IMG/VR virus record: IMGVR_UViG_2681813004_000013
Span: 1-10,226 of that record
Direction: 5' to 3' (one strand)
DNA from: a virus
Taxonomy: Duplodnaviria; Heunggongvirae; Uroviricota; Caudoviricetes
Length of the DNA: 10,226 bases
A program made the translations under genes and the position numbers. A model generated the notes under the pieces. That model worked only from the letters and a program-made list of their open reading frames with translations. It ran no database searches and was not told where the DNA came from. The stretch's first letter is position 1; each line of letters starts with the position of its first letter. Of this stretch, positions 1 to 10,226 are shown one piece after another.

Positions 1-233
1 TTAACCTGGTCGCATTTTTCCTTCGACAGCTTCATTCCCGGTATGACGGGCTTACCATCCACCATTGTGGCACCACGACAGATGGTCCATATACCGGAAC
101 CATCGCGGTATGCCGTAGTGTGGTTACCCTCTTTTTCATCCAGAAACTGGTCAAGTATTTGAGGAGCAGATGCGCCTGCTCCAATCAGCGCCAGAACGAC
201 CGCTGACAGGCCGTATTTGATTTTTGCGTTCAT
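1..233 (-). CDS. Phage endolysin (lysozyme, T4-lysozyme/GH24-like) with N-terminal SAR-type signal-anchor; only the 5' part of the gene is in the window (it continues past coordinate 1)
   Basis: Minus-strand ATG at 231-233 opens a frame with no stop before the window edge. Translation starts MNAKIKYGLSAVVLALIGAGASAPQILDQFLDEKEGNHTTAYRDGSGIWTICRGATMVDGKPV: a Gly/Ala-rich weakly hydrophobic N-terminus followed by an E...D...T spacing typical of SAR endolysins such as phage 21 R. It sits downstream of a pinholin gene. Not in the ORF track because it is truncated by the window edge. Confidence 0.8.
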   Translation of the reverse strand, partial: MNAKIKYGLSAVVLALIGAGASAPQILDQFLDEKEGNHTTAYRDGSGIWTICRGATMVDGKPVIPGMKLSKEKCDQV

Positions 234-338
234 GGATATTTATCAGGATTTATCGGTTTCTGAACCCTGGATATGTTTATCTGTCCCGGCCTGTTGAATC
301 AGGCGGGGAAAAGGTAAAGACAATCAAGAGGATTATTT

Positions 339-611
339 ATGGACAATAACACCATTTCTCTACAGGAGTTGCTCGACTGCATTTCCAGGCTTCGGGATGA
401 TGTAAATGCCCTCACTGTTGCATTTTCATATCTGGCTTTCTCAATTCCCAAAGAACAAATGAAACCAACACTGGCATCGCTTCTGCTTGAGTCACGCAAC
501 CCCAAATGGTCCCAGGAACAACAAAATTCTTTCAAGTGGCTGGCGGCATTACTGGAAGAAAAATATGCTGGTAAAATTACCATTTCGGTGGAGTCTTCAG
601 AGAACCAGTAA
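339..611 (+). CDS. Hypothetical 90-aa protein, moron-like insert transcribed opposite to the lysis genes
   Basis: ATG at 339 is preceded by AAGAGGA (326-332) with a 6-nt spacer. The translation is protein-like (amphipathic, no low-complexity runs), whereas the overlapping minus ORF 299-646 is Ser/Cys-rich and GTG-initiated. A plus-strand intrinsic terminator follows at 654-682. No family recognised. Confidence 0.55.
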   Translation: MDNNTISLQELLDCISRLRDDVNALTVAFSYLAFSIPKEQMKPTLASLLLESRNPKWSQEQQNSFKWLAALLEEKYAGKITISVESSENQ

Positions 612-921
612 TTCTTCCCGGTAGCTTTCCTTTGTAGGTTATCCACACATTATGCGCCTCTAAAATTACGGGGCGCTTTTCCGGCGACTGCTCACTCCCT
701 TCACATAACCCGGCAGCAACATCCAGGAAGACCTGTCTGATGCTCCTTCTGGCTGCTGCCTCATAAAACTCCAGCGCGGCACCTTCAACACGGTCCAGCG
801 AGATGTCCAGGTCAAAAATTTCACCGTCAAAGCGTTTTTTGTCCCGTAACGCTAAAGTTACCGTAACTTTATTCTCAAAATTGCGGATCCCTTTCACAAT
901 CAGTTCATAGTTTTGAGTCAT
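577..921 (-). CDS. YdfR-like small protein of lambdoid lysis cassettes (DUF1327-like); C-terminal part possibly altered by the adjacent insert
   Basis: ATG at 921 with GGGGAGAG SD about 9 nt upstream, 4 nt after the holin stop (926). Its position between holin and endolysin matches the essQ-ydfR-rrrQ order recalled for the Qin prophage. The 3' 100 nt overlap the plus-strand moron ORF and its terminator. Confidence 0.55.
   Translation of the reverse strand: MTQNYELIVKGIRNFENKVTVTLALRDKKRFDGEIFDLDISLDRVEGAALEFYEAAARRSIRQVFLDVAAGLCEGSEQSPEKRPVILEAHNVWITYKGKLPGRITGSLKTPPKW
654..682 (+). terminator. Putative rho-independent terminator for the plus-strand moron ORF
   Basis: GCGCCTC (654-660), 9-nt loop, GGGGCGC (670-676; 7-bp stem with one G-U), then TTTTCC (677-682). 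Lies 43 nt after the stop of ORF 339-611. Confidence 0.4.
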
Positions 922-925
922 TGAA

Positions 926-1141
926 TTACTCTCCCCGTGCAGCCTTACGCTTGTCTTCTTTAATCTTGAAATAAAGGTTTGTCAGATACGTCAGCAAGCC
1001 AAATACCAGACTACCCAGCACACCTATTGCCGCCCACTGTGAGGGCGTGACTTTATCGAGCAACTGTAAAAACCAGTACCCGGCACTACCTGCTGAGGTG
1101 CCATAGGCGACACCCGTTGTTAACTTATCCATGGATTTCAT
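926..1141 (-). CDS. Class II holin of the phage 21 S (pinholin) family with dual-start motif
   Basis: Translation [71 protein letters not shown] (71 aa): two TM segments, a charged C-terminus, and the Met1-Lys2-Ser3-Met4 start arrangement known from S21 (antiholin/holin pair). GAGGTGGGG SD upstream of ATG 1141. The ORF track extends it to a GTG at 1204, which I consider less likely to be the start. Confidence 0.85.
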
Positions 1142-1208
1142 AACCCCACCTCGCAGATGCGGGTGCTGTGTAATGGAAATAAAAAGGCCACCTGACGTGG
1201 CCACCAGA

Positions 1209-2141
1209 TTATTTCCCCACCAGCTCGTTTATCTCTTTCACTGTCTGGTTAAACCGCTCTGACTCAAGCTCAACACCTAAGGCCCGACGCCCCAGCGCCA
1301 TTGCTGCTTTTATTGTGGAACCGGATCCCATAAAAAAATCAGCAACCAGATCACCTGGTCGACTACTGGCATTGATTATTTGCCTGAGCATATCCGCCGG
1401 TTTCTCACACGGATGTTTCCCCGGGTAGAACTGAACGGGTTTATGCATCCAGACATCGGTATAAGGCACGGAGACTGATACGGAGAAATAGCGCCGGAGA
1501 GATTTAAACTCATCCAGCAATTCAGAATATTTGCGATTCAGTGAATCATAAGATGCCACCAGCTGGTGGTGTGGTTGTTCCAGTTGTTGTTCCTGAAACT
1601 TCTCTGCCGCTATACGGGAAAACAGTGCCTGTAACTTCCGATAGTCAGCCTCATTCGGCAACTGCCACTGACTGGCACCAAACCAGTGGGAAACCATATT
1701 TTTCTTACCTGTGGCTTCGGCAATTTGTTTTGCCGTTATACCCAGTTCGGCACGAGCATCCCTGAAATACGATATCAGCGGTGCCATTATGTGCTGTTTG
1801 AGTTCCCTTTCTTTTGCCGCATAGCCGTCACTTTTGCCGCGATATGGCCCCTGGTAATGTTCAGCAAACAGAACGCGCTCTGTGGCAGGAAAATATGCGC
1901 GCTGACTTTCTTTATTACACCCATTCCAACGTCCGGACGGCTTCGCCCAGATGATATGGTTAAGCACGTTGAAACGTTCACGCATCATGATCTCAATATC
2001 AGATGCCAGGCGATGCCCACAGAACAGGTAAAGGCTTCCGGCAGGTTTTAACACCCGCCAGAACTGGGCCAGACAGTGGTCCAGCCACTTAAGGTAATCT
2101 TCGTCCCCTTTCCACTGATTGTCCCAACCGTTAGGTTTCAC
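1209..2141 (-). CDS. DNA methyltransferase, N6_N4 (beta-class, CcrM-like) family; apparently lacks the N-terminal DPPY catalytic region (possible 5'-truncated remnant)
   Basis: C-terminal motifs HPCEKP and DFFMGSGST (motif I, FxGxG) plus internal [12 protein letters not shown] and NHIIWAKP match beta-class MTase signatures. No D/S-PPY motif is found upstream of RVLKP in the ORF or in the in-frame upstream extension, which runs into tRNA-Thr. The first start codon is GTG at 2141, with AAGGGAG about 10 nt upstream. Confidence 0.6.
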
Positions 2142-2187
2142 CTTCAGTCTGCTCCCTTTGGCCGCTCGGGAACCCCACCGGACTTGA

Positions 2188-2263
<76 letters not shown>

Positions 2264-2265
2264 AC

Positions 2266-2341
2266 TGGACCGCCACCGGGGACTCGAACCTCGCACACTC
2301 AACTTAAAGGGTTGACGCTCTTTCCTGATGGCTAGTGGCGG
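2266..2341 (-). tRNA. Atypical tRNA-like gene (positional anticodon UUU, loop CCUUUAA); possibly degenerate
   Basis: Minus-strand CCGCCACTAGCCATCAGGAAAGAGCGTCAACCCTTTAAGTTGAGTGTGCGAGGTTCGAGTCCCCGGTGGCGGTCCA has a perfect 7-bp acceptor stem, T-loop TTCGAGT, encoded CCA and a perfect 5-bp anticodon stem TCAAC/GTTGA. Position 33 is C instead of U, the D-stem is only 2-3 bp, and the T-stem has one A-C mismatch. Confidence 0.5.
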
Positions 2342-2342
2342 T

Positions 2343-2418
2343 TGGTGGCCCTTGCTGGATTTGAACCAGCGACCTGGCGATTATGAGTCGCTCGCTCTCA
2401 CCACTGAGCTAAAGGGCC
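2343..2418 (-). tRNA. tRNA with CAU anticodon, ileX/ileZ-like (tRNA-Ile2 reading AUA after lysidine modification, or tRNA-Met)
   Basis: Minus-strand GGCCCTTTAGCTCAGTGGTGAGAGCGAGCGACTCATAATCGCCAGGTCGCTGGTTCAAATCCAGCAAGGGCCACCA: canonical cloverleaf, anticodon loop CTCATAA. It is close to the E. coli ileX sequence as I recall it. Confidence 0.85.
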
Positions 2419-2446
2419 GAGCCAAAAAATAATAATCAGATGAAAA

Positions 2447-3160
2447 TCAATAATCAAGCCCTTGCCTGGATACATATCTGTCTGGCGGGAAGCCATAATA
2501 GCGGTGAAATACAGAAATAAAGTAGGACCTGCTTGAATAACCGCATTTTTCTGCTATAGCCTGTCCATATCCATGCCGGGAACATAACATATTTACAGCA
2601 ACACGCATCCGCTCTTCCAGCAACAAGCGACTGAACATGCCCCCTTCATTTTTCAGTTTTGTCTTTAACAAACTCTCACTCATATGCAACTGTAGAGCAA
2701 TCGCACCAAGCGTCCAGCTTGCTGATATATCTGTCTGAATTATCGCCCTGACTTTGGCACTTATGCTGGATAAACATCCACTTAAAAACAATGACATCCG
2801 TTCATCTGTTTCAAACAGAGACAGGCAGGCCATCATAAGAAACATATCCGTGGCCTCTCCGGAAAATCCCTGGCTGGTAATTAAAGCCGCAGCCAACGCA
2901 GGATTGTTGGGTTCCAGCAACAGGTAAAGCGGAATGTCAGTCAGACGAGTCCTCGTCAGCTTATGCTGACTTTCCAGATATTGACTTACGACGGATTCGC
3001 TTATATCGACAATTTTAACTTTGCCATAATGCATAAGGAAAAGCTCCCTGATGCATTTGGTGGCCAGAACAACTGAGCCTGGCTTAAGTGACAACGTATC
3101 CTTTTCAAGAAAAATATTAATTGGGGAGCAAACCATGATAACTGAACAGACAACAGCCAT
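2447..3160 (-). CDS. AraC-family transcriptional regulator, AppY-like (prophage-encoded regulator type)
   Basis: The C-terminal 100 aa carry the AraC double-HTH signature (…IAEKCGYSSRSYFISVFHRYYGFPPDRY). The N-terminus MAVVCSVIMVCSP…KVKIVDI aligns with the N-terminus of E. coli AppY as I recall it (MDYVCSVVFICQS…KLRIVDI). ATG at 3160 sits in an AT-rich leader. Confidence 0.8.
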   Translation of the reverse strand: MAVVCSVIMVCSPINIFLEKDTLSLKPGSVVLATKCIRELFLMHYGKVKIVDISESVVSQYLESQHKLTRTRLTDIPLYLLLEPNNPALAAALITSQGFSGEATDMFLMMACLSLFETDERMSLFLSGCLSSISAKVRAIIQTDISASWTLGAIALQLHMSESLLKTKLKNEGGMFSRLLLEERMRVAVNMLCSRHGYGQAIAEKCGYSSRSYFISVFHRYYGFPPDRYVSRQGLDY

Positions 3161-3280
3161 TATAATTTTACTTTCATTAGCAATTGGTTAGCTCAATTAT
3201 AGCCCCAAAAGGTAAATTATCATCAACACATAAGCAAAGGACTGACAGGTGTCGCCCCCCACCAGCCGCCCATTCACCAC

Positions 3281-3307
3281 AAATAAAAAGCCTTCAGGAC
3301 TGAAGGC
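3281..3307 (-). terminator. Rho-independent terminator after the small wHTH gene
   Basis: Minus-strand RNA GCCUUCA-GUCC-UGAAGGC followed by UUUUUAUUU. The hairpin overlaps the UGA stop at 3294-3296. Confidence 0.55.
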
Positions 3308-3491
3308 GTCTGTAACAACCGCACTGATAGTCTGCCAGACCCGCCATAACAAGTTGGGTCAGTATTAACTGGCAGCGTTCGCGTGAAAGGTAAGTATTCT
3401 GCGCAATCTCCCCGACTGTCGCCGGTTCGGTAACGCTTAATTCATCAAACACAACTCTGGCGGTTTCTGTCATATCCTGCTGTTTCAGCAT
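3294..3491 (-). CDS. Small (65 aa) putative winged-helix DNA-binding protein
   Basis: ORF with its own downstream terminator. The segment ATVGEIAQNTYLSRERCQLILTQLVMAGL resembles a wHTH recognition helix (PapI/FaeA-like proteins come to mind). The start codon is ambiguous: ATG at 3491 or ATG at 3473. Confidence 0.45.
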   Translation of the reverse strand: MLKQQDMTETARVVFDELSVTEPATVGEIAQNTYLSRERCQLILTQLVMAGLADYQCGCYRRLQS

Positions 3492-3614
3492 GTCTTTTTA
3501 CCCTTTCCGGTTAACGTGACATACCAATAACTCTTGTCCAAAAAGCCAGCAAGCAGAAAGACCGGTATTCGCAACCACCAGCGTATTTAACGCCCCGTGC
3601 CGTTTTTCAGTCAT

Positions 3615-3638
3615 AAAAAAACCCGCAAAAAGCGGGCT
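3615..3638 (-). terminator. Rho-independent terminator after the ORF6N-like gene
   Basis: On the minus strand, GCCCGC-UUUUU-GCGGGU followed by a 7-U run (plus-strand A-run at 3615-3621). About 100 nt downstream of the stop at 3735. Confidence 0.6.
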
Positions 3639-3734
3639 CTTTCAAATGTCCATGTCTGCTATTCGCCTCGCGGTACAGCTTTGCGAAGCGTACCGGAATT
3701 GAAGCAGTTTATGGCTAAAATTGCAAGAACTTTT

Positions 3735-4346
3735 TTAAAGCTGCATCAGCCTTTCCACCAGTTTATCTCTGCGAACAACAAACCAACCATTGGCTCTCGC
3801 CAGTTCCAGCCATGACTCAAGGGAAATAACAATATCATCATCCCGCAACTGAATTGTGGAAACAGTGACACCGCCTCGCTGATAACAGAGAACTCGCGTG
3901 TCGTAACTTTTCTGGCATGAAGCTGGCGCTGACGGATCCTTTTGTCTGAAATAGCACTCTTCCAGTTTTTCGAACACATCCCACGCCTGATCGGTTTCGA
4001 GCATTTTGGCGTGACGGGCTGCTCCGCGTTCTGTCCAGAGAATGAGGGAGCGGGCTTTCGGGGAAATTTGTAACCCTCTTAAAGATGGTTGCAAATTTTG
4101 TGAGTTACTTAAAGTAACCCGCAAATTTTGTGAGTAGTTTAAAGCTACCCGCAATTCTTTAAGGTCATTACCAACAACTTTGAAAAAGTGTTTCCCTTCA
4201 ACGAAGCGTACTTTGTTCTCATGATGATTCTGGCGAATGCGCACCGGCTCAGTGCCGTAAAGCTGCGCCAAAAGTTCGGTGGTAATAACAGGAATCTGGT
4301 TATGGGTGATCGGGGAGAGAGTTTCAACAGAAATTTGAGTTGTCAT
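3735..4346 (-). CDS. Phage antirepressor-like protein with N-terminal ORF6N-type domain and internal 10-aa tandem repeats
   Basis: ATG at 4346 with AGAGGG SD about 8 nt upstream. The N-terminal segment VITTELLAQLYGTEPVRIRQNHHENKVRFVEGKHFFKVVGNDLKEL fits the ORF6N antirepressor N-domain pattern as I recall it. The central region encodes repeats LRVALNYSQN / LRVTLSNSQN / LQPSLRGLQI from a 30-bp tandem DNA repeat. Confidence 0.5.
   Translation of the reverse strand: MTTQISVETLSPITHNQIPVITTELLAQLYGTEPVRIRQNHHENKVRFVEGKHFFKVVGNDLKELRVALNYSQNLRVTLSNSQNLQPSLRGLQISPKARSLILWTERGAARHAKMLETDQAWDVFEKLEECYFRQKDPSAPASCQKSYDTRVLCYQRGGVTVSTIQLRDDDIVISLESWLELARANGWFVVRRDKLVERLMQL
4090..4149. repeat. Two tandem 30-bp repeats (25/30 identical), each containing a short dyad-symmetric core, inside the ORF6N-like CDS; degenerate partial copies flank them (about 4063-4165)
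   Basis: Unit 1 is gcaaattttgtgagttacttaaagtaaccc; unit 2 is gcaaattttgtgagtagtttaaagctaccc. The cores are GTTAC-ttaaa-GTAAC and GTAG-tttaaag-CTAC. Four of the five differences between units fall at paired positions and preserve the dyad. Confidence 0.8.
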
Positions 4347-4505
4347 AATGACGCCCTCTGGTGGTTTCTTAATAACTCACCACCGACGACGCCAATCATC
4401 TGGTGGTGAACTGTGCGGGGTTGGCGTAACCGGGAAACCGACCGGCGCGGATCTCTCCGCCCCCACACAGCCCACCATAATTCAGATGTGCGCGTGCATA
4501 CGACA

Positions 4506-4529
4506 ATAAAAAACACGCTCGCGGCGTGT
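4506..4529 (-). terminator. tR'-like intrinsic terminator of the short late leader transcript
   Basis: Minus strand ACACGC-CGCGA-GCGUGU followed by UUUUUUAUUG. Lies about 70-80 nt downstream of the putative late promoter. Confidence 0.6.
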
Positions 4530-4590
4530 ATCTGTCGCGGTCTCTATCCAGGACGCCAATCCCGACGCCAGATTTTGCTGGCGCGTGAGG

Positions 4591-4620
4591 AATATAGCCC
4601 CGGATAACAGATTGAGTCAA
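4591..4620 (-). promoter_or_regulatory. Putative Q-dependent late promoter (pR'-like)
   Basis: Minus strand TTGACT (4620-4615), 17-18 bp spacer, then CTATAT/TATATT (4597-4591). The -35 overlaps the Q stop codon. Directly followed by the short leader and terminator, as in lambdoid late regions. Confidence 0.5.
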
Positions 4621-5183
4621 CAGACGGTTTTTAGATCCCCGGAAGAGAATGCATCACGCATCGGCAGATAGAGCATAAACTCTGCCATTTTCAACCACGC
4701 ATCTATGCGATTACGGCACGTGGCGTAACACCACTCAGGGTGTGAATCATTCAGCAATTCAGCCATTTTGCGCTTAGTCATCCCCCGCCCCACATAACGC
4801 TGACTCAGAACATTGAGCAGCCCGGGATAACCTGCCAGTACTTCACCAATAACCCTGTCGATTATTAACGCCTCTGAATCGGTACAATGTGCCAGCCAGC
4901 TTTTTTGATTGCCGTTGATCATATCCCGCAAAAAAGCCTCAAGTTCAGGTTTGTCCAGACCCGCTTTTTTCATCCTCCGGAGCGCCTCGTTAATTGCCGT
5001 TTTTGTCAGCTTTTTAGAGGTCAGTAATTGGTTGAACATATTTCCCGTCTTACCGTCGCCAATATACGACCAACGCCCCCACATACGCAGTTTCCCCTGG
5101 ATCCAGACACTTTCCAGCGTTTTCAGGCGTAAATGCTCACCGCTTTTGCCTGTAATTTCCGGGTATATCATATTTATGCTCAC
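4617..5183 (-). CDS. Late-gene antitermination protein Q (lambdoid Q-like)
   Basis: Sits between rusA and the pR'/tR'-like elements, the canonical Q position. Size is 184-188 aa; the MWGRWSY motif resembles the RWGRW segment recalled from E. coli prophage Q homologues. The track start is GTG at 5183, overlapping the rusA stop; an in-frame ATG at 5169-5171 is the more likely start. Confidence 0.65.
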   Translation of the reverse strand: MSINMIYPEITGKSGEHLRLKTLESVWIQGKLRMWGRWSYIGDGKTGNMFNQLLTSKKLTKTAINEALRRMKKAGLDKPELEAFLRDMINGNQKSWLAHCTDSEALIIDRVIGEVLAGYPGLLNVLSQRYVGRGMTKRKMAELLNDSHPEWCYATCRNRIDAWLKMAEFMLYLPMRDAFSSGDLKTVC

Positions 5184-5545
5184 TCACTTTCAATTTTGTA
5201 AATCTTCACGCCCAGCCGCCCAACAGAAACGAGCTGACCGCGCACAATATTGATTTCATCAAACTGCTCGTCGTCTATGAGAAGTCCGGCATGCGTCAGC
5301 GCATCCAGCGGTGCTTTCAGAATGTTGTCCAGGTCACGGCGGCGCTTATCCGGTGGCTCTGCAATAATTTTTATTGCCAGCCTTCCGGACAGGTTTAATT
5401 TCAACCTCTGCTGGCGAACAATAAGCGCCACATCACGGCGATAACGCTTTCCGGCCTCCGAGATGAAATACGTATTGCCATGACGTCGCCAGTAGGTATT
5501 CACCGTCGGCGGGTAAGGCAAAACAAATTCTATCCGTTCAGTCAT
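5180..5545 (-). CDS. rusA: Holliday junction resolvase RusA
   Basis: Translation MTERIEFVLPYPPTVNTYWRRHGN…PPDKRRRDLDNILKAPLDALTHAGLLIDDEQ matches the RusA family signature (P-P-S/T-x-N-x-Y, RRRDLDN, D-D acidic pair). The ATG directly abuts the upstream stop (TGAATG). Confidence 0.9.
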   Translation of the reverse strand: MTERIEFVLPYPPTVNTYWRRHGNTYFISEAGKRYRRDVALIVRQQRLKLNLSGRLAIKIIAEPPDKRRRDLDNILKAPLDALTHAGLLIDDEQFDEINIVRGQLVSVGRLGVKIYKIESE

Positions 5546-6604
5546 TCATGCTTTCCACTTCAGGACACCCGAATTTCTCGCGTGCATTAAAAAACGAATC
5601 AGCAACAACAGCTGGCTGCCGTGTTTCTCTTCAAATTCTCTTACCCCGGCATGTAGCTCGTTATGGCAGCGTCTACACAACGGAATAACAAACAAATCGT
5701 CAGCCTTTGTTCCCGTTCCCCCCAGTCCATGACCAATGATGTGATGCGGATCATCTGCCTGATTGCCACACGCCATGCACTTCTGCGTTTTTACCCACCG
5801 CGTGTATATCGGCATCTCTTCACGTTGTGGTTTCTGGCGTCTGAGGTATTGAGCAGGAGACTCCGGATCAACAGTTATGCTGACCACCGCTTTTTCCTGT
5901 TGTGGGTTCTGTTGCTGGTGGGCGTAAGGCAACGGCGCAAGATTTTTTGTGCGCTGCTTCAGTATGCTGGTGGCGCTCTGCTCTCCCGGTACGATGTCGC
6001 TTTCACGGTACATTGAGCGGATTTTTTCCGCACGCAACCCCAGCGAACGACGTAATACCGCTTCCGGTAGCGCGTCCGCCACCTGATTGCGGACCGCCCA
6101 CCAGGATAATTCAGCCAGAGATAATTCCCGTTCCTGTGCACCACTTATTGCGTGACGTATGACGTCAATCATCCAGGCTGTCAGATTTTGTTGAGCAAGC
6201 TGCCCGAGTGATTCGGATGTCTGGTCACGCAGCTGGTTGTCGCAGTGCCAGCACAACACCATTGCGCCGGTACCATAACGGTGAATGACGGTTTCACTGT
6301 GGTGATAATCGCCGTGTGGCCACTGGCAGGATTTAACATGACGCAGTAACCAGTCAGACAATGCGCCAGCGCCACCAGCAGCACGAATCACTCGTTCGTC
6401 GCTGAAAAATGGCAGTAATGATTTATCCTCCGCCAGCGGCTGGCGAACGGCAGGAACGACCCCAGACGGCAGATTACGCATGCTTTTCGGTTCCGGCTCC
6501 ACCAGTACCCGGGTATTGTGGAATACCGGCATGGATTCACGGCCCGGCTTAACGATCACCAGCCCGAGTTCCGGTACCAGAACAGGTCGAAGTAATACCC
6601 GCAC
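5546..6604 (-). CDS. DUF968-family prophage protein (YdfU-like) with C-terminal HNH-like zinc motif
   Basis: 352 aa with a GTG start preceded by GGAGG. The C-terminus CMACGNQADDPHHIIGHGLGGTGTKADDLFVIPLCRRCHNELH has CxxC…HH…CxxCH spacing typical of HNH-type nuclease folds. It occupies the position upstream of rusA/Q that YdfU holds in Qin-like prophages. Confidence 0.7.
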   Translation of the reverse strand: MRVLLRPVLVPELGLVIVKPGRESMPVFHNTRVLVEPEPKSMRNLPSGVVPAVRQPLAEDKSLLPFFSDERVIRAAGGAGALSDWLLRHVKSCQWPHGDYHHSETVIHRYGTGAMVLCWHCDNQLRDQTSESLGQLAQQNLTAWMIDVIRHAISGAQERELSLAELSWWAVRNQVADALPEAVLRRSLGLRAEKIRSMYRESDIVPGEQSATSILKQRTKNLAPLPYAHQQQNPQQEKAVVSITVDPESPAQYLRRQKPQREEMPIYTRWVKTQKCMACGNQADDPHHIIGHGLGGTGTKADDLFVIPLCRRCHNELHAGVREFEEKHGSQLLLLIRFLMHARNSGVLKWKA

Positions 6605-6605
6605 G

Positions 6606-6890
6606 TTACCTCCAGAGCCGTTGCTGGAATGTGCGGGACGGACGCGGTGGGCGTTCGGAGTAAGGAAGCCTGACGGAGATTATCCAGTGACGATAATCGA
6701 GGCTGAGGGCTTCCCTAAACTCATACCCACGCCTGCGGTAGTTCTGAATCAGCCATTCGGCCTGTTCTTCAGTGCATGGGTCATGCTGATACCAGTCATA
6801 TTTGAATGTGTGAGAACGCCGCCCGTGCCTACTGGCAAAGACGGCTGAATTATCAGAATTGTTAATTTTTTTGTAATGCACCACTACCAT
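6606..6890 (-). CDS. Hypothetical 94-aa protein
   Basis: ORF whose stop lies 1 nt from the DUF968 GTG start, suggesting translational coupling. A palindromic TATAAT (6935-6940) lies upstream. The SD is poor (GAGG directly abutting the ATG), so the true start is uncertain. No family recognised. Confidence 0.4.
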   Translation of the reverse strand: MVVVHYKKINNSDNSAVFASRHGRRSHTFKYDWYQHDPCTEEQAEWLIQNYRRRGYEFREALSLDYRHWIISVRLPYSERPPRPSRTFQQRLWR

Positions 6891-6950
6891 CCTCGTAATG
6901 GTGCGACAGACGCCAGTTGTTCAGGCTGGCTTTAACTATAGCATTATAAT

Positions 6951-7118
6951 CTAGTCTTTCTTAATGCTGAAGTGACTGACCGAATCCGCATGCGATTCTT
7001 TGGTGATCAGAATAACATCGGGTGGCAATGGCATTACGATAAATTCACCATTCTCAAGAACTATTACTTCATAATTACCAGATACAGAAAGCGCAGCAAT
7101 TAATTCCTTATCATTCAT
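6951..7118 (-). CDS. Possible small protein (55 aa), not in the ORF track
   Basis: Hand translation gives MNDKELIAALSVSGNYEVIVLENGEFIVMPLPPDVILITKESHADSVSHFSIKKD. Protein-like composition, but only a weak SD (AGGG about 9 nt upstream). Confidence 0.3.
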   Translation of the reverse strand: MNDKELIAALSVSGNYEVIVLENGEFIVMPLPPDVILITKESHADSVSHFSIKKD

Positions 7119-7236
7119 AACAAAACCCTATGAACTTTTAACATTTCCCCTTAAGGGGTCCATCCCTCTTCTCCCTGCGCGCTACTTAAGTATTTTTGAT
7201 TCTATTCCGGCACCTTCAAAAAGCTCAAACGTCTTG

Positions 7237-7270
7237 AAAATAAACAACAAAAAACCCGCCGAAGCGGGTT
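7237..7270 (-). terminator. Rho-independent terminator of the hok transcript
   Basis: Minus-strand RNA AACCCGC-UUCG-GCGGGUU (UUCG tetraloop) followed by UUUUGUUGUUUAUUUU. About 70 nt downstream of the hok stop. Confidence 0.75.
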
Positions 7271-7338
7271 AAGTGCGGGTGCGTTGAGGATGCCTGACAC
7301 ATCAGAGGTGGCGAGGGATTTCTCCCCCGCCGGGTCTC

Positions 7339-7494
7339 TTACTCCTCAGGTTCGTAAGCTGTGAAGACAGCGACCTCCGTCTGGCCGGTTCGGATTCGTA
7401 CCTCGCAGAGGTCTTTCCTCGTTACCAGTGCCGTCACTATGACGGTTAAACAGATGACGATCAGGGCGATTAACATCGCCTTTTGCTGCTTCAT
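7339..7494 (-). CDS. Hok-family type I toxin (membrane-depolarising peptide), HokD/Gef-like
   Basis: Hand translation gives MKQQKAMLIALIVICLTVIVTALVTRKDLCEVRIRTGQTEVAVFTAYEPEE (51 aa), which carries the canonical Hok signature (TM helix, then TRK-LCE-R-G--EVAAF-AYE). AAGGAG SD upstream. Not in the ORF track because it is shorter than 60 aa. Confidence 0.85.
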   Translation of the reverse strand: MKQQKAMLIALIVICLTVIVTALVTRKDLCEVRIRTGQTEVAVFTAYEPEE

Positions 7495-7614
7495 AGCCTG
7501 CTTCTCCTTGACCTTTCGGTCCGTAAGAGGCTAATCTCTATGTGTCGCATAGATATGGCCTCAGATTAATGTTAAGCGTCTTGCCGGACGCGTAATGTTA
7601 ACTGGGGCTTTTCT

Positions 7615-7650
7615 CTGTCTGCCTTACGGCGGCATGCCCGAGGCAGACAG
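7615..7650 (-). promoter_or_regulatory. Long stem-loop in the presumed hok mRNA leader (9-bp stem, 18-nt loop containing the palindrome GGCATGCC)
   Basis: ctgtctgcc (7615-7623) pairs with ggcagacag (7642-7650). No U-run follows on either strand, so it is not a terminator. It lies in the region where hok-family loci carry mok/sok/fbi-type RNA elements. Confidence 0.35.
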
Positions 7651-7711
7651 CCTCAAGCACCCGCAGCAATTCTACTTAACTCTCGCTTTACAGCAAACCG
7701 TTTTTGCCCGA

Positions 7712-7727
7712 TATGGGAATTCCCATA
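7712..7727. repeat. Perfect 16-bp palindrome TATGGGAATTCCCATA
   Basis: Exact dyad centred on GAATTC, in the intergenic space between the stop of the 34-aa peptide gene (7738) and the hok leader. A candidate operator or RNA hairpin. Confidence 0.7.
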
Positions 7728-7737
7728 CGGAATGAAT

Positions 7738-7842
7738 TCAGTTCCCCAGGCGATCCATCAAAAACACAACCAGGCAGTAAACACCCACAACAGCAATAAC
7801 AGCCAGAGCGCCTTCCATTACCAGTGAAATATCATCCGACAT
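7738..7842 (-). CDS. Small hydrophobic peptide (34 aa, single predicted TM helix)
   Basis: Hand translation gives MSDDISLVMEGALAVIAVVGVYCLVVFLMDRLGN. The ATG is preceded by a very strong SD, AAGGGAGGG, with a 4-nt spacer. A promoter-like TTGCTA…TAGTAT/TATATG lies upstream (minus strand, about 7880-7910). Confidence 0.5.
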   Translation of the reverse strand: MSDDISLVMEGALAVIAVVGVYCLVVFLMDRLGN

Positions 7843-7951
7843 ATTCCCTCCCTTGGTGTGAATTCCGGCGAACGTTTTTACCCCCACCGACAAATAACAT
7901 ATACTAGAAAAGCAATAGCTATAGCAACGCCTGCAAATGCATCGGGCCGGC

Positions 7952-8785
7952 TCATTGGTGCGCCCCCTGTATCGCTTCTACTGCGATCTGACTGGCGTAT
8001 TTGTTAATGGTAACGATAAGTTCTTGCTCGGCCTCATCCAGACAACCACCGATACCTCGCCTGTCACCTTCAGAAGCATCGAAATCTGCACGAACCCTGG
8101 CGACCTTCAGGATTGCGGACAACACCTCATCAGGGATTGCCGGAGAGTTGGTTGACGTTTCCGAGGTTATCCGAAAATTATTGGTTGACGAATTCTTATT
8201 TTCCCGAAAGTTTTCGGCATGAAGCATGGCGGTGTTATACCCATCCGCGAAAATCTCTGCTTCTTCGTTATTCAGTTCGGCACCAAGTTTAAGCGCAATA
8301 GCTTTTGCCATTGAGGCGGTAATTTGATGGCATGGCTGACGTCCATGAAGCATGGCGTCGCTCCGCTCTATGCCATCCAGCGCAATTCGAAGCGCATGAA
8401 TTGTAGTAATGCTATCGTTTGGGGTTATTCCGTATCGTTCGAATACAGCGATATGGTTGCGCATAATCGCAGGTGTAAGCTCTTTGTAAGCAAGAGCAAG
8501 AGGTCCAGATACATCGTTCAGCACTACCGTCATCGGTGAGGCGGCGTAGACTTCAATAATCCCAGTATCAATAGGCCATTCCCCATCCTTGATATAGTAA
8601 CTTGTTCCGTCAACTTGCTGTTCTACAATGTGGAAAGCACCTATTGGTTCTGCTTCCAGCGATGCCAGTGCAATTTTGAATAACTCGCCCTCTACCCGTG
8701 CCATCCCTGAATTGGGGTAGCATTTCGCAATCGCTATTTTTAATTTGGCTTCTTCGATTAATTTCTCTTTGGTTAATTCAGTCAC
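7952..8785 (-). CDS. Hypothetical 277-aa protein of unknown function (two predicted domains joined by a Ser/Thr/Asn-rich linker)
   Basis: Long ORF with protein-like composition. The only in-frame start at the 5' end is GTG at 8785, served by a hairpin-bridged AGGAGG. The linker is NSSTNNFRITSETSTNSPAIP. No family recognised from the sequence. Confidence 0.6.
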   Translation of the reverse strand: MTELTKEKLIEEAKLKIAIAKCYPNSGMARVEGELFKIALASLEAEPIGAFHIVEQQVDGTSYYIKDGEWPIDTGIIEVYAASPMTVVLNDVSGPLALAYKELTPAIMRNHIAVFERYGITPNDSITTIHALRIALDGIERSDAMLHGRQPCHQITASMAKAIALKLGAELNNEEAEIFADGYNTAMLHAENFRENKNSSTNNFRITSETSTNSPAIPDEVLSAILKVARVRADFDASEGDRRGIGGCLDEAEQELIVTINKYASQIAVEAIQGAHQ

Positions 8786-8816
8786 TTTTCATTACCGCCC
8801 TTTCGGGCGGCCTCCT
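8783..8816 (-). promoter_or_regulatory. Structured translation-initiation region: AGGAGG, 16-nt GNRA-type hairpin, then GTG start
   Basis: Minus-strand RNA AGGAGG-CCGCCC-GAAA-GGGCGG-UAAUGAAAA-GUG. The linear SD-to-start distance is 25 nt, reduced to about 9 nt if the 6-bp GC hairpin forms. Confidence 0.4.
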
Positions 8817-8820
8817 GACA

Positions 8821-9033
8821 TTAATCGTTGTGATAACTCATAGCTTCATTTGCAGCATCAACTGGATCAACATCCCACCAGCAATAATTTGGGTCGACAC
8901 CTTCAGGTGTCCACGGCTCTAATTCATTTTTTGCTACATTCTCGTCACCAGTAATTTTAAAAATCTGCTCAGAGAATTTTTTTACCCACTCGTTATATTT
9001 TTCCGCGTTAATGGTTTTCTGTGTATTTAACAT
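8821..9033 (-). CDS. Hypothetical 70-aa acidic protein
   Basis: ATG at 9033 with GGAGG SD and a 7-nt spacer. Translation MLNTQKTINAEKYNEWVKKFSEQIFKITGDENVAKNELEPWTPEGVDPNYCWWDVDPVDAANEAMSYHND. AT-rich relative to its neighbours. No family recognised. Confidence 0.55.
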   Translation of the reverse strand: MLNTQKTINAEKYNEWVKKFSEQIFKITGDENVAKNELEPWTPEGVDPNYCWWDVDPVDAANEAMSYHND

Positions 9034-9078
9034 AGATATACCTCCGGTTAAGGATTAAATTTTATTTACAGTGCTGAT

Positions 9079-9438
9079 TTAATATTCAGTTCTGGCTTTT
9101 GTTGCCCTGCGTATCCGCGCTTTCGCGTTACGCTCAATCTGAATTAGCTTTTCTATATTTTTTCGCCTTTCCTGTTCCTCCTGGCGCAATAGCCTTACAT
9201 CATCTGCCAGTCTGGTTTCTCTTTTAGCCACAGAGAGCATCCAGTCAAACGGCTCCACAACTGCACCACAGATTTTGCAGCGGACCTGACGCTCTTTTTC
9301 GTCAACCCGGACAGAAGCGTGATGGCAGTATGGTCTTTCCGATGGCTCATAAAGAAAATTAACCTGATTACGTGGGTCATCCTCTTTTACCGGAAATAAA
9401 ACGATATTGCTTAACTCATCTTCTGGTTTTATTTCCAT
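9079..9438 (-). CDS. Hypothetical 119-aa protein with a Cys/His cluster (putative zinc ribbon) and a basic coiled-coil C-terminus
   Basis: Preferred start is ATG at 9438, preceded by AAAGGAGAGGAG; the track's TTG at 9489 has no SD. Contains YCHH…(15)…CKIC, then a Lys/Arg/Glu-rich helical tail. Confidence 0.55.
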   Translation of the reverse strand: MEIKPEDELSNIVLFPVKEDDPRNQVNFLYEPSERPYCHHASVRVDEKERQVRCKICGAVVEPFDWMLSVAKRETRLADDVRLLRQEEQERRKNIEKLIQIERNAKARIRRATKARTEY

Positions 9439-9495
9439 GCTCCTCTCCTTTGATGCGAATGCCAGCGATAATTGAAGCCTGATAGCCAATTTTAC

Positions 9496-9915
9496 TCACA
9501 GCCCCCCCTGATAATTTCCCTGATAAAACGCCAGCACTCGCTGCATAACTTCGCTCTTCCGGCACTCGCGACAGATTATATTCAGGCGCCTGTCGTAGCG
9601 ACGTATTTCTCCGTCTGGTAATGACCATATAAGGTCAGGATCAACCACAACCGGTTTCTTCAGCTTTGCCCTCGATAATTTTTTGCGGGCGTTTTGCCAG
9701 TCCTTACGAGCCTGTTCAGAGGGGAATAATCCGTAGCCTGAATTGTAAACATCACCACTGGCGACCAGTTCTCTGGCGAGAGTGCTTATGTAATACCTTG
9801 ATGCACCGGTTTTAGCCTCCAGAGCCCGTAACGTCTCGCGACCGCTCAGACGTACAAGTTCAATAACCTGCCCTTTAATTTTTTCTCGCTCTTCTTGTGT
9901 AAAAACTTTTGCCAC
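9496..9915 (-). CDS. Hypothetical 139-aa protein with probable helix-turn-helix
   Basis: GTG start with AGGAGG SD and a 4-nt spacer. The segment RETLRALEAKTGASRYYISTLAREL is HTH-like. A C-terminal CRECRK motif is present. Confidence 0.5.
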   Translation of the reverse strand: MAKVFTQEEREKIKGQVIELVRLSGRETLRALEAKTGASRYYISTLARELVASGDVYNSGYGLFPSEQARKDWQNARKKLSRAKLKKPVVVDPDLIWSLPDGEIRRYDRRLNIICRECRKSEVMQRVLAFYQGNYQGGL

Positions 9916-9955
9916 AAGTCCTCCTGAAAATTACCTCGTGACCTGAAATAAACAC

Positions 9956-10226
9956 TTACCCCCTGAAGCCCGGTGGAATTTCGGTATCCGGTTCAGAAAT
10001 ATGATTCACACAACGCTGGTTGTTCGTGCCGCTTACCGGGAGCAACCAGGGGTTTTCAAAATTTCGGTCCGGTCCAAAAAACGTCGTCGCTCGCTGAACA
10101 AATTCCGTTCCAGTTTTCCCGGTAACCGCCAGATATCTTGCGTAACGCCTCACGCCATCCAGCATGGCCTCTGGTGGCACCCCCTCGCGTAATCTGGCCT
10201 TCCAGGCACTGAAAGCGGATTTCTTC
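9956..10226 (-). CDS. 3' end of an early-region gene of unknown function (the start lies beyond the window end)
   Basis: The minus-strand frame is open from the window edge to the TAA at 9956-9958. The track's Met at 10180 is an internal GTG codon. The translation …AFSAWKARLREGVPPEAMLDGVRRYARYLAVTGKTGTEFVQRATTFFGPDRNFENPWLLP… is protein-like. Confidence 0.45.
   Translation of the reverse strand, partial: KKSAFSAWKARLREGVPPEAMLDGVRRYARYLAVTGKTGTEFVQRATTFFGPDRNFENPWLLPVSGTNNQRCVNHISEPDTEIPPGFRG

Follow-up and report, generated by a model that had tools for sequence, protein, structure and literature searches.

The window analysed here is a 10,226-nucleotide stretch of DNA from an Escherichia coli lambda-like prophage (IMG/VR record IMGVR_UViG_2681813004_000013, positions 1 to 10,226), and the element under study is a plus-strand open reading frame (ORF) of 90 codons located in its lysis cassette, between a YdfR-like gene and the gene for the lysozyme (endolysin). 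All the identified genes of the window are on the minus strand, with the exception of this ORF, and their order is typical of lambdoid phages. The YdfR-like gene is separated from the lysozyme start (position 233) by 343 bp, and the ORF overlaps the coding sequence of the YdfR-like gene by 35 bp (577-611). An earlier note on this DNA had described the ORF as an inserted antisense gene with its own Shine-Dalgarno (SD) sequence and its own terminator; on re-check its coordinates, the SD and 6-nt spacer, the 35-bp overlap and the hairpin were all found to be correct. The features of the window are listed in Table 1.

By comparative sequence analysis the ORF was confirmed as a genuine protein-coding gene, on the strand opposite to the late operon as had been proposed. 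Of 5426 complete E. coli genomes searched by megablast, about 1100 had the whole interval and 1125 (21%) the core of the ORF, where it is always annotated as "hypothetical protein". Strain EPSSH018 (NZ_CP125889.1) has 100% identity to the window at 300-575. About 240 copies were fetched from IMG/VR, metagenomes, genomes and phages, all of them colinear (lysozyme, ORF, YdfR and holin), and an intact ATG-initiated ORF of 89-90 codons was present in 231 of 237 copies. Pairwise ratios of nonsynonymous to synonymous substitution rates (dN/dS, Nei-Gojobori method, NG86) were 0.25 in the frame of the ORF versus 0.9-1.6 in the two other plus-strand frames. The SD, AAGAGGA at 326-332, lies 6 nt ahead of the ATG, and the sequence GAGGATT(A/G)TTTATGG was kept across the E. 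coli-type upstream variants, one variant having AAGGA. Finally, the predicted product matched the phage protein family PHROG 2411 over its full length (residues 1-90 on positions 1-90 of the 90-position profile, E 3.2e-57).

The same DNA could also be read on the other strand, where the minus-strand ORF listed in Table 1, or the shorter version that begins at its internal ATG and overlaps the YdfR stop, would be the true frame, co-oriented with the lysis genes. It is open in the window over 115 aa and its dN/dS is equally low (0.21); because it shares its third-codon position with the plus-strand ORF, codon-position counts and dN/dS values cannot separate the strands. The strand was decided instead by stop-codon counts and by comparison of BLOSUM62 scores. 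Of 36 distinct E. coli variants, 6, among them every divergent one, had stops in the ATG-583 version and an open plus frame; when 11 family members of several genera were compared, 9 had an interrupted minus frame. For the aligned replacements the mean BLOSUM62 score was 1.69 (plus frame) versus 0.47 (minus frame). The minus-strand ORF was rejected as a gene on account of its internal stops and lower BLOSUM62 score; moreover, it lacks an SD, its Ser- and Cys-rich product resembles a junk translation, and the inspected RefSeq and phage-record annotations put the hypothetical protein on the plus-strand ORF. We regard this reading as extremely improbable.

PHROG 2411 is a catalogued phage family of unknown function, whose members are named "hypothetical protein" in RefSeq; one UniProt entry gives the name Ybl58, for which a literature search found no paper. 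The product had no match in Pfam, NCBIfam or PADLOC, and the PHROG label says only "unknown function". A word-indexed search returned relatives only in Escherichia and Shigella, with at least 71% identity, and an exhaustive profile search added a few distant relatives (28-57% identity) in Citrobacter, Yersinia and other loci, which share the motif ELLxxIxxLRxxVNxLxxAFSYLAFS...ALxFES. Three of them (P0065, P0069 and P0073) matched the PHROG 2411 profile too. The most distant match, P0076 (locus L255, 3001-3279, E 1e-4), of uncertain homology, is chromosomal and lies between dinI and bssS near rne and pyrC, in the same orientation as the genes around it. When viral and metagenome contigs were scanned with a profile of the distant members, almost all the sequences returned were of the E. 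coli type. The product is acidic (isoelectric point 4.8) and predicted to be soluble, with a maximum 19-residue Kyte-Doolittle mean of 0.88; no transmembrane segment, signal peptide, lipobox or N-terminal hydrophobic region was found in it. Its predicted structure consists of four helices (predicted local distance difference test, pLDDT, 72), and the residues encoded by its last 8 codons (SVESSENQ) form a tail predicted to be disordered.

The ORF was also confirmed to be carried by extra DNA lacking in related prophages. In the ORF-less Qin prophage of K-12 the stop codon of a 103-aa YdfR overlaps the start of rrrQ. In YYZ-2008 a 114-aa YdfR is followed by a gap of just 50 bp (likewise, by partial match, in H-19B and many Shiga toxin (Stx) phages), and in vB_EcoS-611R1 a 116-aa YdfR is followed by a gap of 63 bp. 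In slot alignments made with 611R1, YYZ-2008, 2H10 and K-12 Qin, the segment that varies is bounded on one side by the YdfR codons ..SLKTPP and on the other by the conserved leader of the lysozyme gene, ..AACATATCCAGGG..GATAAATCCTGATAAATATCCATG, the slot extending from codon P112 of YdfR to this leader. The replaceable cassette contains the promoter-like region, the SD and codons 1-82 of the ORF and, on the minus strand, the last two codons of YdfR (K-W) and its stop. Its G+C content is 0.42 versus 0.47-0.51 in the flanks, a modest difference.

Table 1. Features of the window in and around the lysis cassette
Feature	Position	Strand	Remarks
Lysozyme (endolysin) gene, 5' part	1-233	minus	Phage_lysozyme match; runs off the window
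Replaceable cassette, about 295 bp	292-585		Left edge 282-292 depending on the allele compared; from alignments with ORF-less alleles
Weak promoter-like pair, candidate only	TTGAAT 294-299, GACAAT 319-324	plus	19-nt spacer; from the upstream-variant alignment
Shadow ORF	299-646	minus	115 aa; internal ATG at 583; open in the window; no SD
ORF, PHROG 2411	339-611	plus	90 aa; only plus-strand gene of the window
YdfR-like gene, convergent partner	577-921	minus	114 aa; Pfam DUF1327, E 6e-42
YdfR tail, residues 79-114	580-687	minus	Motif KGKLPGRITGSLKTPP
Last 8 codons and TAA of the ORF	585-611	plus	Antisense to YdfR tail codons; DNA common to ORF-less alleles
Hairpin, possible plus-strand terminator	654-680	plus	7-bp stem (654-660/670-676), 9-nt loop, TTTT at 677-680; inside the YdfR coding sequence
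Holin gene, class II (phage 21-type)	926-1141	minus	MKSM dual start; Phage_holin_2_1, E 2e-35
Terminator-like hairpin with T run	1186-1202	minus	After the methyltransferase gene, just upstream of the holin gene
DNA methyltransferase gene (N6_N4_Mtase)	1209-2141	minus	
tRNA-Met (CAT), tRNA-Lys (TTT), tRNA-Thr (TGT) cluster	2188-2418	minus	Upstream of the methyltransferase and lysis genes
ORF6N protein and AraC-family regulator genes	2447-3160 (AraC-family regulator)	minus	
DUF977, DUF968/HNH and RusA genes, then Q-like antiterminator (DUF1133)		minus	

The convergent ends of the ORF and YdfR, at 572-612, are spanned by an imperfect inverted repeat (AATTACCATTTC, 14 nt, GAACCAGTAATT), and because of it both strands encode ..IT(I/G)S.. 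The TAA of the ORF sits in the antisense of the I-T codons of YdfR, and the same DNA layout is found in the Citrobacter locus L104. In one IMG/VR copy (L019) a 1.3-kb insertion at about 2923-4233, probably an insertion sequence (IS) element, splits the YdfR tail region, and in L091 a transposase gene (rve) lies between YdfR and the holin.

The comparison of prophages showed that the YdfR-lysozyme slot is a hot spot, which is either empty or occupied by PHROG 2411 or by one of two unrelated antisense ORFs, PHROG 2572 and PHROG 21218. In phage 2H10 (L253, 1166-1432) and in L257 (1979-2245) and L258, an antisense ORF of 86-88 aa belonging to PHROG 2572 (E 1e-53) overlaps the 3'-end of a YdfR gene extended to 183 or 176 aa. 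Its product is likewise small and acidic, and the cassette is present in 314 of the 5426 E. coli genomes, with no annotated feature at this place in 7 of the 8 RefSeq genomes listed. In Perceval, a prophage of LF82 (L259, 964-1203), a 79-aa antisense ORF of PHROG 21218 (E 2e-57), unannotated in the record, is convergent with a 104-aa YdfR variant (PHROG 2735) ending ..YTIKINSSDNSITGC (..SITGC). Homology of PHROG 2411 to the other two slot occupants was considered and rejected (hhalign probability <1%).

The convergent gene proved to be a recurrent companion of PHROG 2411. In all six phage contexts examined, the PHROG 2411 gene is convergent with a late-strand gene, with a 3' overlap of 7-47 nt, and in all six the last 15-25 residues of the partner carry KGxL...(K/R)ITGSL..P. 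These contexts are the E. coli lysis cassette of the window (partner of 114 aa, ending ..YKGKLPGRITGSLKTPPKW), a Citrobacter lysis cassette, upstream of the holin (L104; 238 aa, ..EGKIRNEKITGSLRVPMKL), a Yersinia locus after tail gene I (L105; 71 aa, ..SGELYSEKITGSLFAPLSAHPSE), two loci between tail genes M and L (L097; 71 aa, ..KGNIFSDQIFGDLKKPPSY; and L254; 60 aa, ..EGKLILRDGSLVSF) and a locus upstream of Nu1/terminase (L094; 62 aa, ..KGGQLRYKRLTGDILIPLES). The background frequency of the core tail pattern in six-frame translations of the fetched loci was 0.08 per 1000 residues. Between loci the codons of the tail differ, as does their register relative to the stop of the ORF, and the peptide is kept, so the constraint acts on the partner protein. 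The extra DNA between genes M and L is made up, in both L097 and L254, of the partner together with the ORF, and in phiSTEC1575-Stx2k the lysozyme module has been swapped and YdfR and the ORF have stayed together. Like phiSTEC1575-Stx2k, the phage Chlobot is inducible and has the gene. Homology to YdfR as a general property of the convergent partners was rejected, as only the C-terminal motif is shared and the bodies, in proteins of 60-238 aa, are unrelated or weakly related.

In the window itself YdfR matches Pfam PF07041 at 142 bits (cut-off 25) and the K-12 allele matches the profile from end to end (1-93 of 93, 180 bits). Residues 1-78 of the window protein make up the DUF1327 core, the only part shared with K-12, and homology ends at about residue 78. 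These limits bear on the suggestion that the C-terminus of YdfR is encoded by inserted DNA, which holds only for the final K-W and the stop codon; the remainder (..NVWITYKGKLPGRITGSLKTPP) is the C-terminus that is conserved in the tail-type family, ORF-less phages included. In a broader sense the suggestion keeps some value, since the tail differs from the K-12/Pfam type from about residue 79 and carries the motif seen with PHROG 2411 in other genera. The K-12 YdfR protein binds RNase E's catalytic domain (PMC13232886), and the C-terminus of that allele differs and is without the tail. The binding suggests an action of YdfR proteins on the RNA metabolism of the host, late in infection.

On the late strand, intrinsic terminators were found in four of the non-E. 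coli loci (L104, 2859-2876; L105, 2833-2849; L097, 2856-2873; and L094, 2852-2866), in each case 125-150 nt upstream of the start of the PHROG 2411 gene. The late-direction unit in these loci is thus made up of the partner gene, the antisense of the ORF and the terminator. At the matching place the E. coli window has a 5-bp hairpin (291-305, GCCTG..CAGGC) without a T run.

Upstream of the lysis genes in the direction of late transcription, the gene for the AraC-family regulator, which has the Q-like antiterminator region on one side and the tRNA cluster on the other, is itself likely to be a late-region accessory gene. The set of tRNA genes at the matching place differs in related prophages (Gly/Thr/Lys/Ile in L001 and Arg/Arg in 611R1). 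Rfam searches found nothing in positions 1-2100 of the window, and the tRNA genes were the sole matches in 1-2500. In the L087-L089 prophages a ParE/ParD-like gene pair lies downstream of the lysozyme gene, in place of the spanin genes.

Taken together, these data lead us to favour, as the probable explanation, that the ORF is a selected gene carried on a replaceable cassette and linked to a tail-motif gene, which would be expressed in the lysogen and whose product would bind protein. The ORF would be translated from its conserved SD and transcribed from its own weak candidate promoter while late transcription is off, i.e. in the lysogen, since a gene in this orientation would need transcription of its own within a silent late operon. 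After induction, convergent Q-driven late transcription would shut it off. The product would most likely work by binding another protein, because it is small, acidic and helical; the best guess at what it binds is the YdfR-type late protein encoded convergently, at its basic tail, in which case it would act as an antidote or a regulator in the uninduced cell. That the product does bind the partner tail, in a layout like that of a colicin operon, is a tentative proposal by analogy and, in our opinion, rather unlikely. Slightly less likely still is its extension, according to which the ORF and the partner tail would form a mobile two-gene module, an effector-immunity-like system in which a late protein with an active or recognised tail is matched by a backward, lysogen-expressed neutraliser, the slot then holding at least three non-homologous cognate pairs (PHROG 406/2411, 2091/2572 and 2735/21218).

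A number of observations weigh against the favoured explanation, beginning with the transcription signals. A consensus scan with spacers of 16-18 nt found no sigma-70 promoter for the ORF. In the candidate pair of Table 1 the second hexamer is TACAAT in most alleles, and TTGAAT-19 nt-(T/G)ACAAT is partly conserved; the candidate -10 hexamer is just 14 nt from the ATG, and a transcription start at this promoter would give a leader of about 8-10 nt. The terminator that the earlier note attributed to the ORF is present as a hairpin with a T run, which folds at -12.3 kcal/mol (z -2.1), is intact in about 220 of 236 copies, the variants being disruptive, and was missed by a consensus terminator scan because its loop exceeds 8 nt and it has only 4 T. 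No compensatory changes were found in it among the copies, its sequence also encodes the conserved YdfR residues EKRPVILEA, and it lies outside the cassette. As a terminator of the ORF it is plausible but unproven, because it is located in YdfR coding DNA common to ORF-less alleles. As for the proteins, no family of immunity, antitoxin or defence proteins was matched by the product of the ORF in sequence or in fold, and the model of YdfR was poor, with a pLDDT <50 in the tail. The link with the partner is also loose in places: the ORF is intact in the L087-L089 prophages despite the decay of YdfR to a 23-codon remnant (e.g. L089, 2125-2196), which still encodes KLPGRITGSL; relatives in four non-phage settings (L096, L100, L102 and L255) have no motif-bearing partner; and >80 phage records, those of H-19B and YYZ-2008 among them, have a tail-type YdfR and no ORF.

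These last observations are those expected if the ORF were a stand-alone lysogenic-conversion or defence moron with no functional tie to YdfR, the linkage reflecting shared descent and a common insertion site. The ORF is under purifying selection also where YdfR has decayed, homologues without a partner are found next to an autotransporter gene, between dinI and bssS and at other non-phage locations, and many of the E. coli genomes that have the gene (21%) probably contain defective prophages. However, a motif-bearing partner recurs at four late-operon positions in three genera, the searches of PADLOC, Pfam and NCBIfam gave no match, and the product is of an unusual type for such a role, as Bor, Lom, Cor, SieB and HK97 gp15 are all unlike a soluble acidic protein. 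In particular, superinfection exclusion of the classical membrane type, which had been suggested for the ORF, is unlikely because the product is acidic and soluble, with no transmembrane segment or signal peptide. We consider the stand-alone moron possible, if doubtful. A quite different role would be that of an antisense-transcription element, in which convergent transcription into the 3'-end of YdfR and in the direction of the holin gene, or a roadblock before the lysozyme gene, damps leaky late transcripts in the lysogen or tunes YdfR, much as cII is tuned by the OOP RNA of lambda, the protein being secondary. The three unrelated ORF families of the slot are all antisense and all overlap the 3'-end of YdfR, the convergent overlap was seen in six out of six phage contexts, and in the four non-E. 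coli loci with a late-strand terminator the late transcript would cross the whole ORF before ending. Nevertheless, purifying selection acts on the protein itself (dN/dS 0.25), it is still conserved in relatives of 28% identity, the replacements being conservative, and its start codon and SD are conserved, all of which makes this role improbable. The favoured explanation, a selected cassette gene linked to a tail-motif gene, is the one that we retain.

The gene itself is already catalogued and annotated, as PHROG 2411. Not obvious from existing annotation are the polymorphism of the slot, with its three unrelated antisense ORFs, and the cross-genus pairing of PHROG 2411 with the tail motif. The gene is found in one of five sequenced E. 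coli genomes and is unstudied; if it is expressed in lysogens, many clinical and veterinary lineages, among them sequence type 131 (ST131) and Shiga toxin-producing E. coli (STEC), would have in it a host-facing prophage gene that has escaped study. The occupancy of the slot and the tail-motif partner offer an experimental handle on YdfR/DUF1327, which many Stx phages have in their lysis cassette, to which no role in lysis is assigned and which was lately reported to bind RNase E. Antisense ORFs are mostly skipped by automatic annotation, as the PHROG 2572 cassette illustrates.

Among known systems, the moron (PMC3594210) is one to which the ORF cassette can be compared. The cassette resembles a moron in being extra DNA between genes that are adjacent in relatives, in having a single small gene with its own translation signals and in its lower G+C content. 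The nearest textbook case is bor of lambda, an accessory gene that lies next to the lysis genes on the strand opposite to the late operon and encodes a lipoprotein. The ORF is oriented against late transcription, as is bor, and therefore needs its own promoter. Unlike the morons bor, lom and HK97 gp15, no clear promoter/terminator pair was found for it, and its product is a soluble, acidic, helical protein rather than an outer-membrane lipoprotein or a membrane protein. It also differs from typical morons in that the antisense of the adjacent late gene supplies its 3'-end and in that it has a specific partner in phages. The moron list of the LF82 prophages does not cover this gene.

In pore-forming colicin operons the colicin gene is followed by an immunity gene on the opposite strand and by a lysis gene (PMC4436062). 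The likeness is one of layout only, with an induced effector-like gene, a small backward gene and a lysis gene. In both, the backward orientation would permit expression in uninduced cells, and here the three types of cassette differ in the backward gene and, together with it, in the C-terminus of the upstream gene. However, immunity proteins to pore-formers are integral membrane proteins, with no homology to the soluble product of the ORF; besides, ORF-less alleles with the same YdfR tail are common and no toxicity of YdfR is known. Finally, the OOP RNA of lambda is a 77-nt non-coding RNA, convergent and antisense to the 3'-end of cII. The ORF and YdfR resemble the OOP/cII pair in that convergent transcripts would overlap the 3'-end of a phage gene, with the difference that the ORF encodes a conserved protein.

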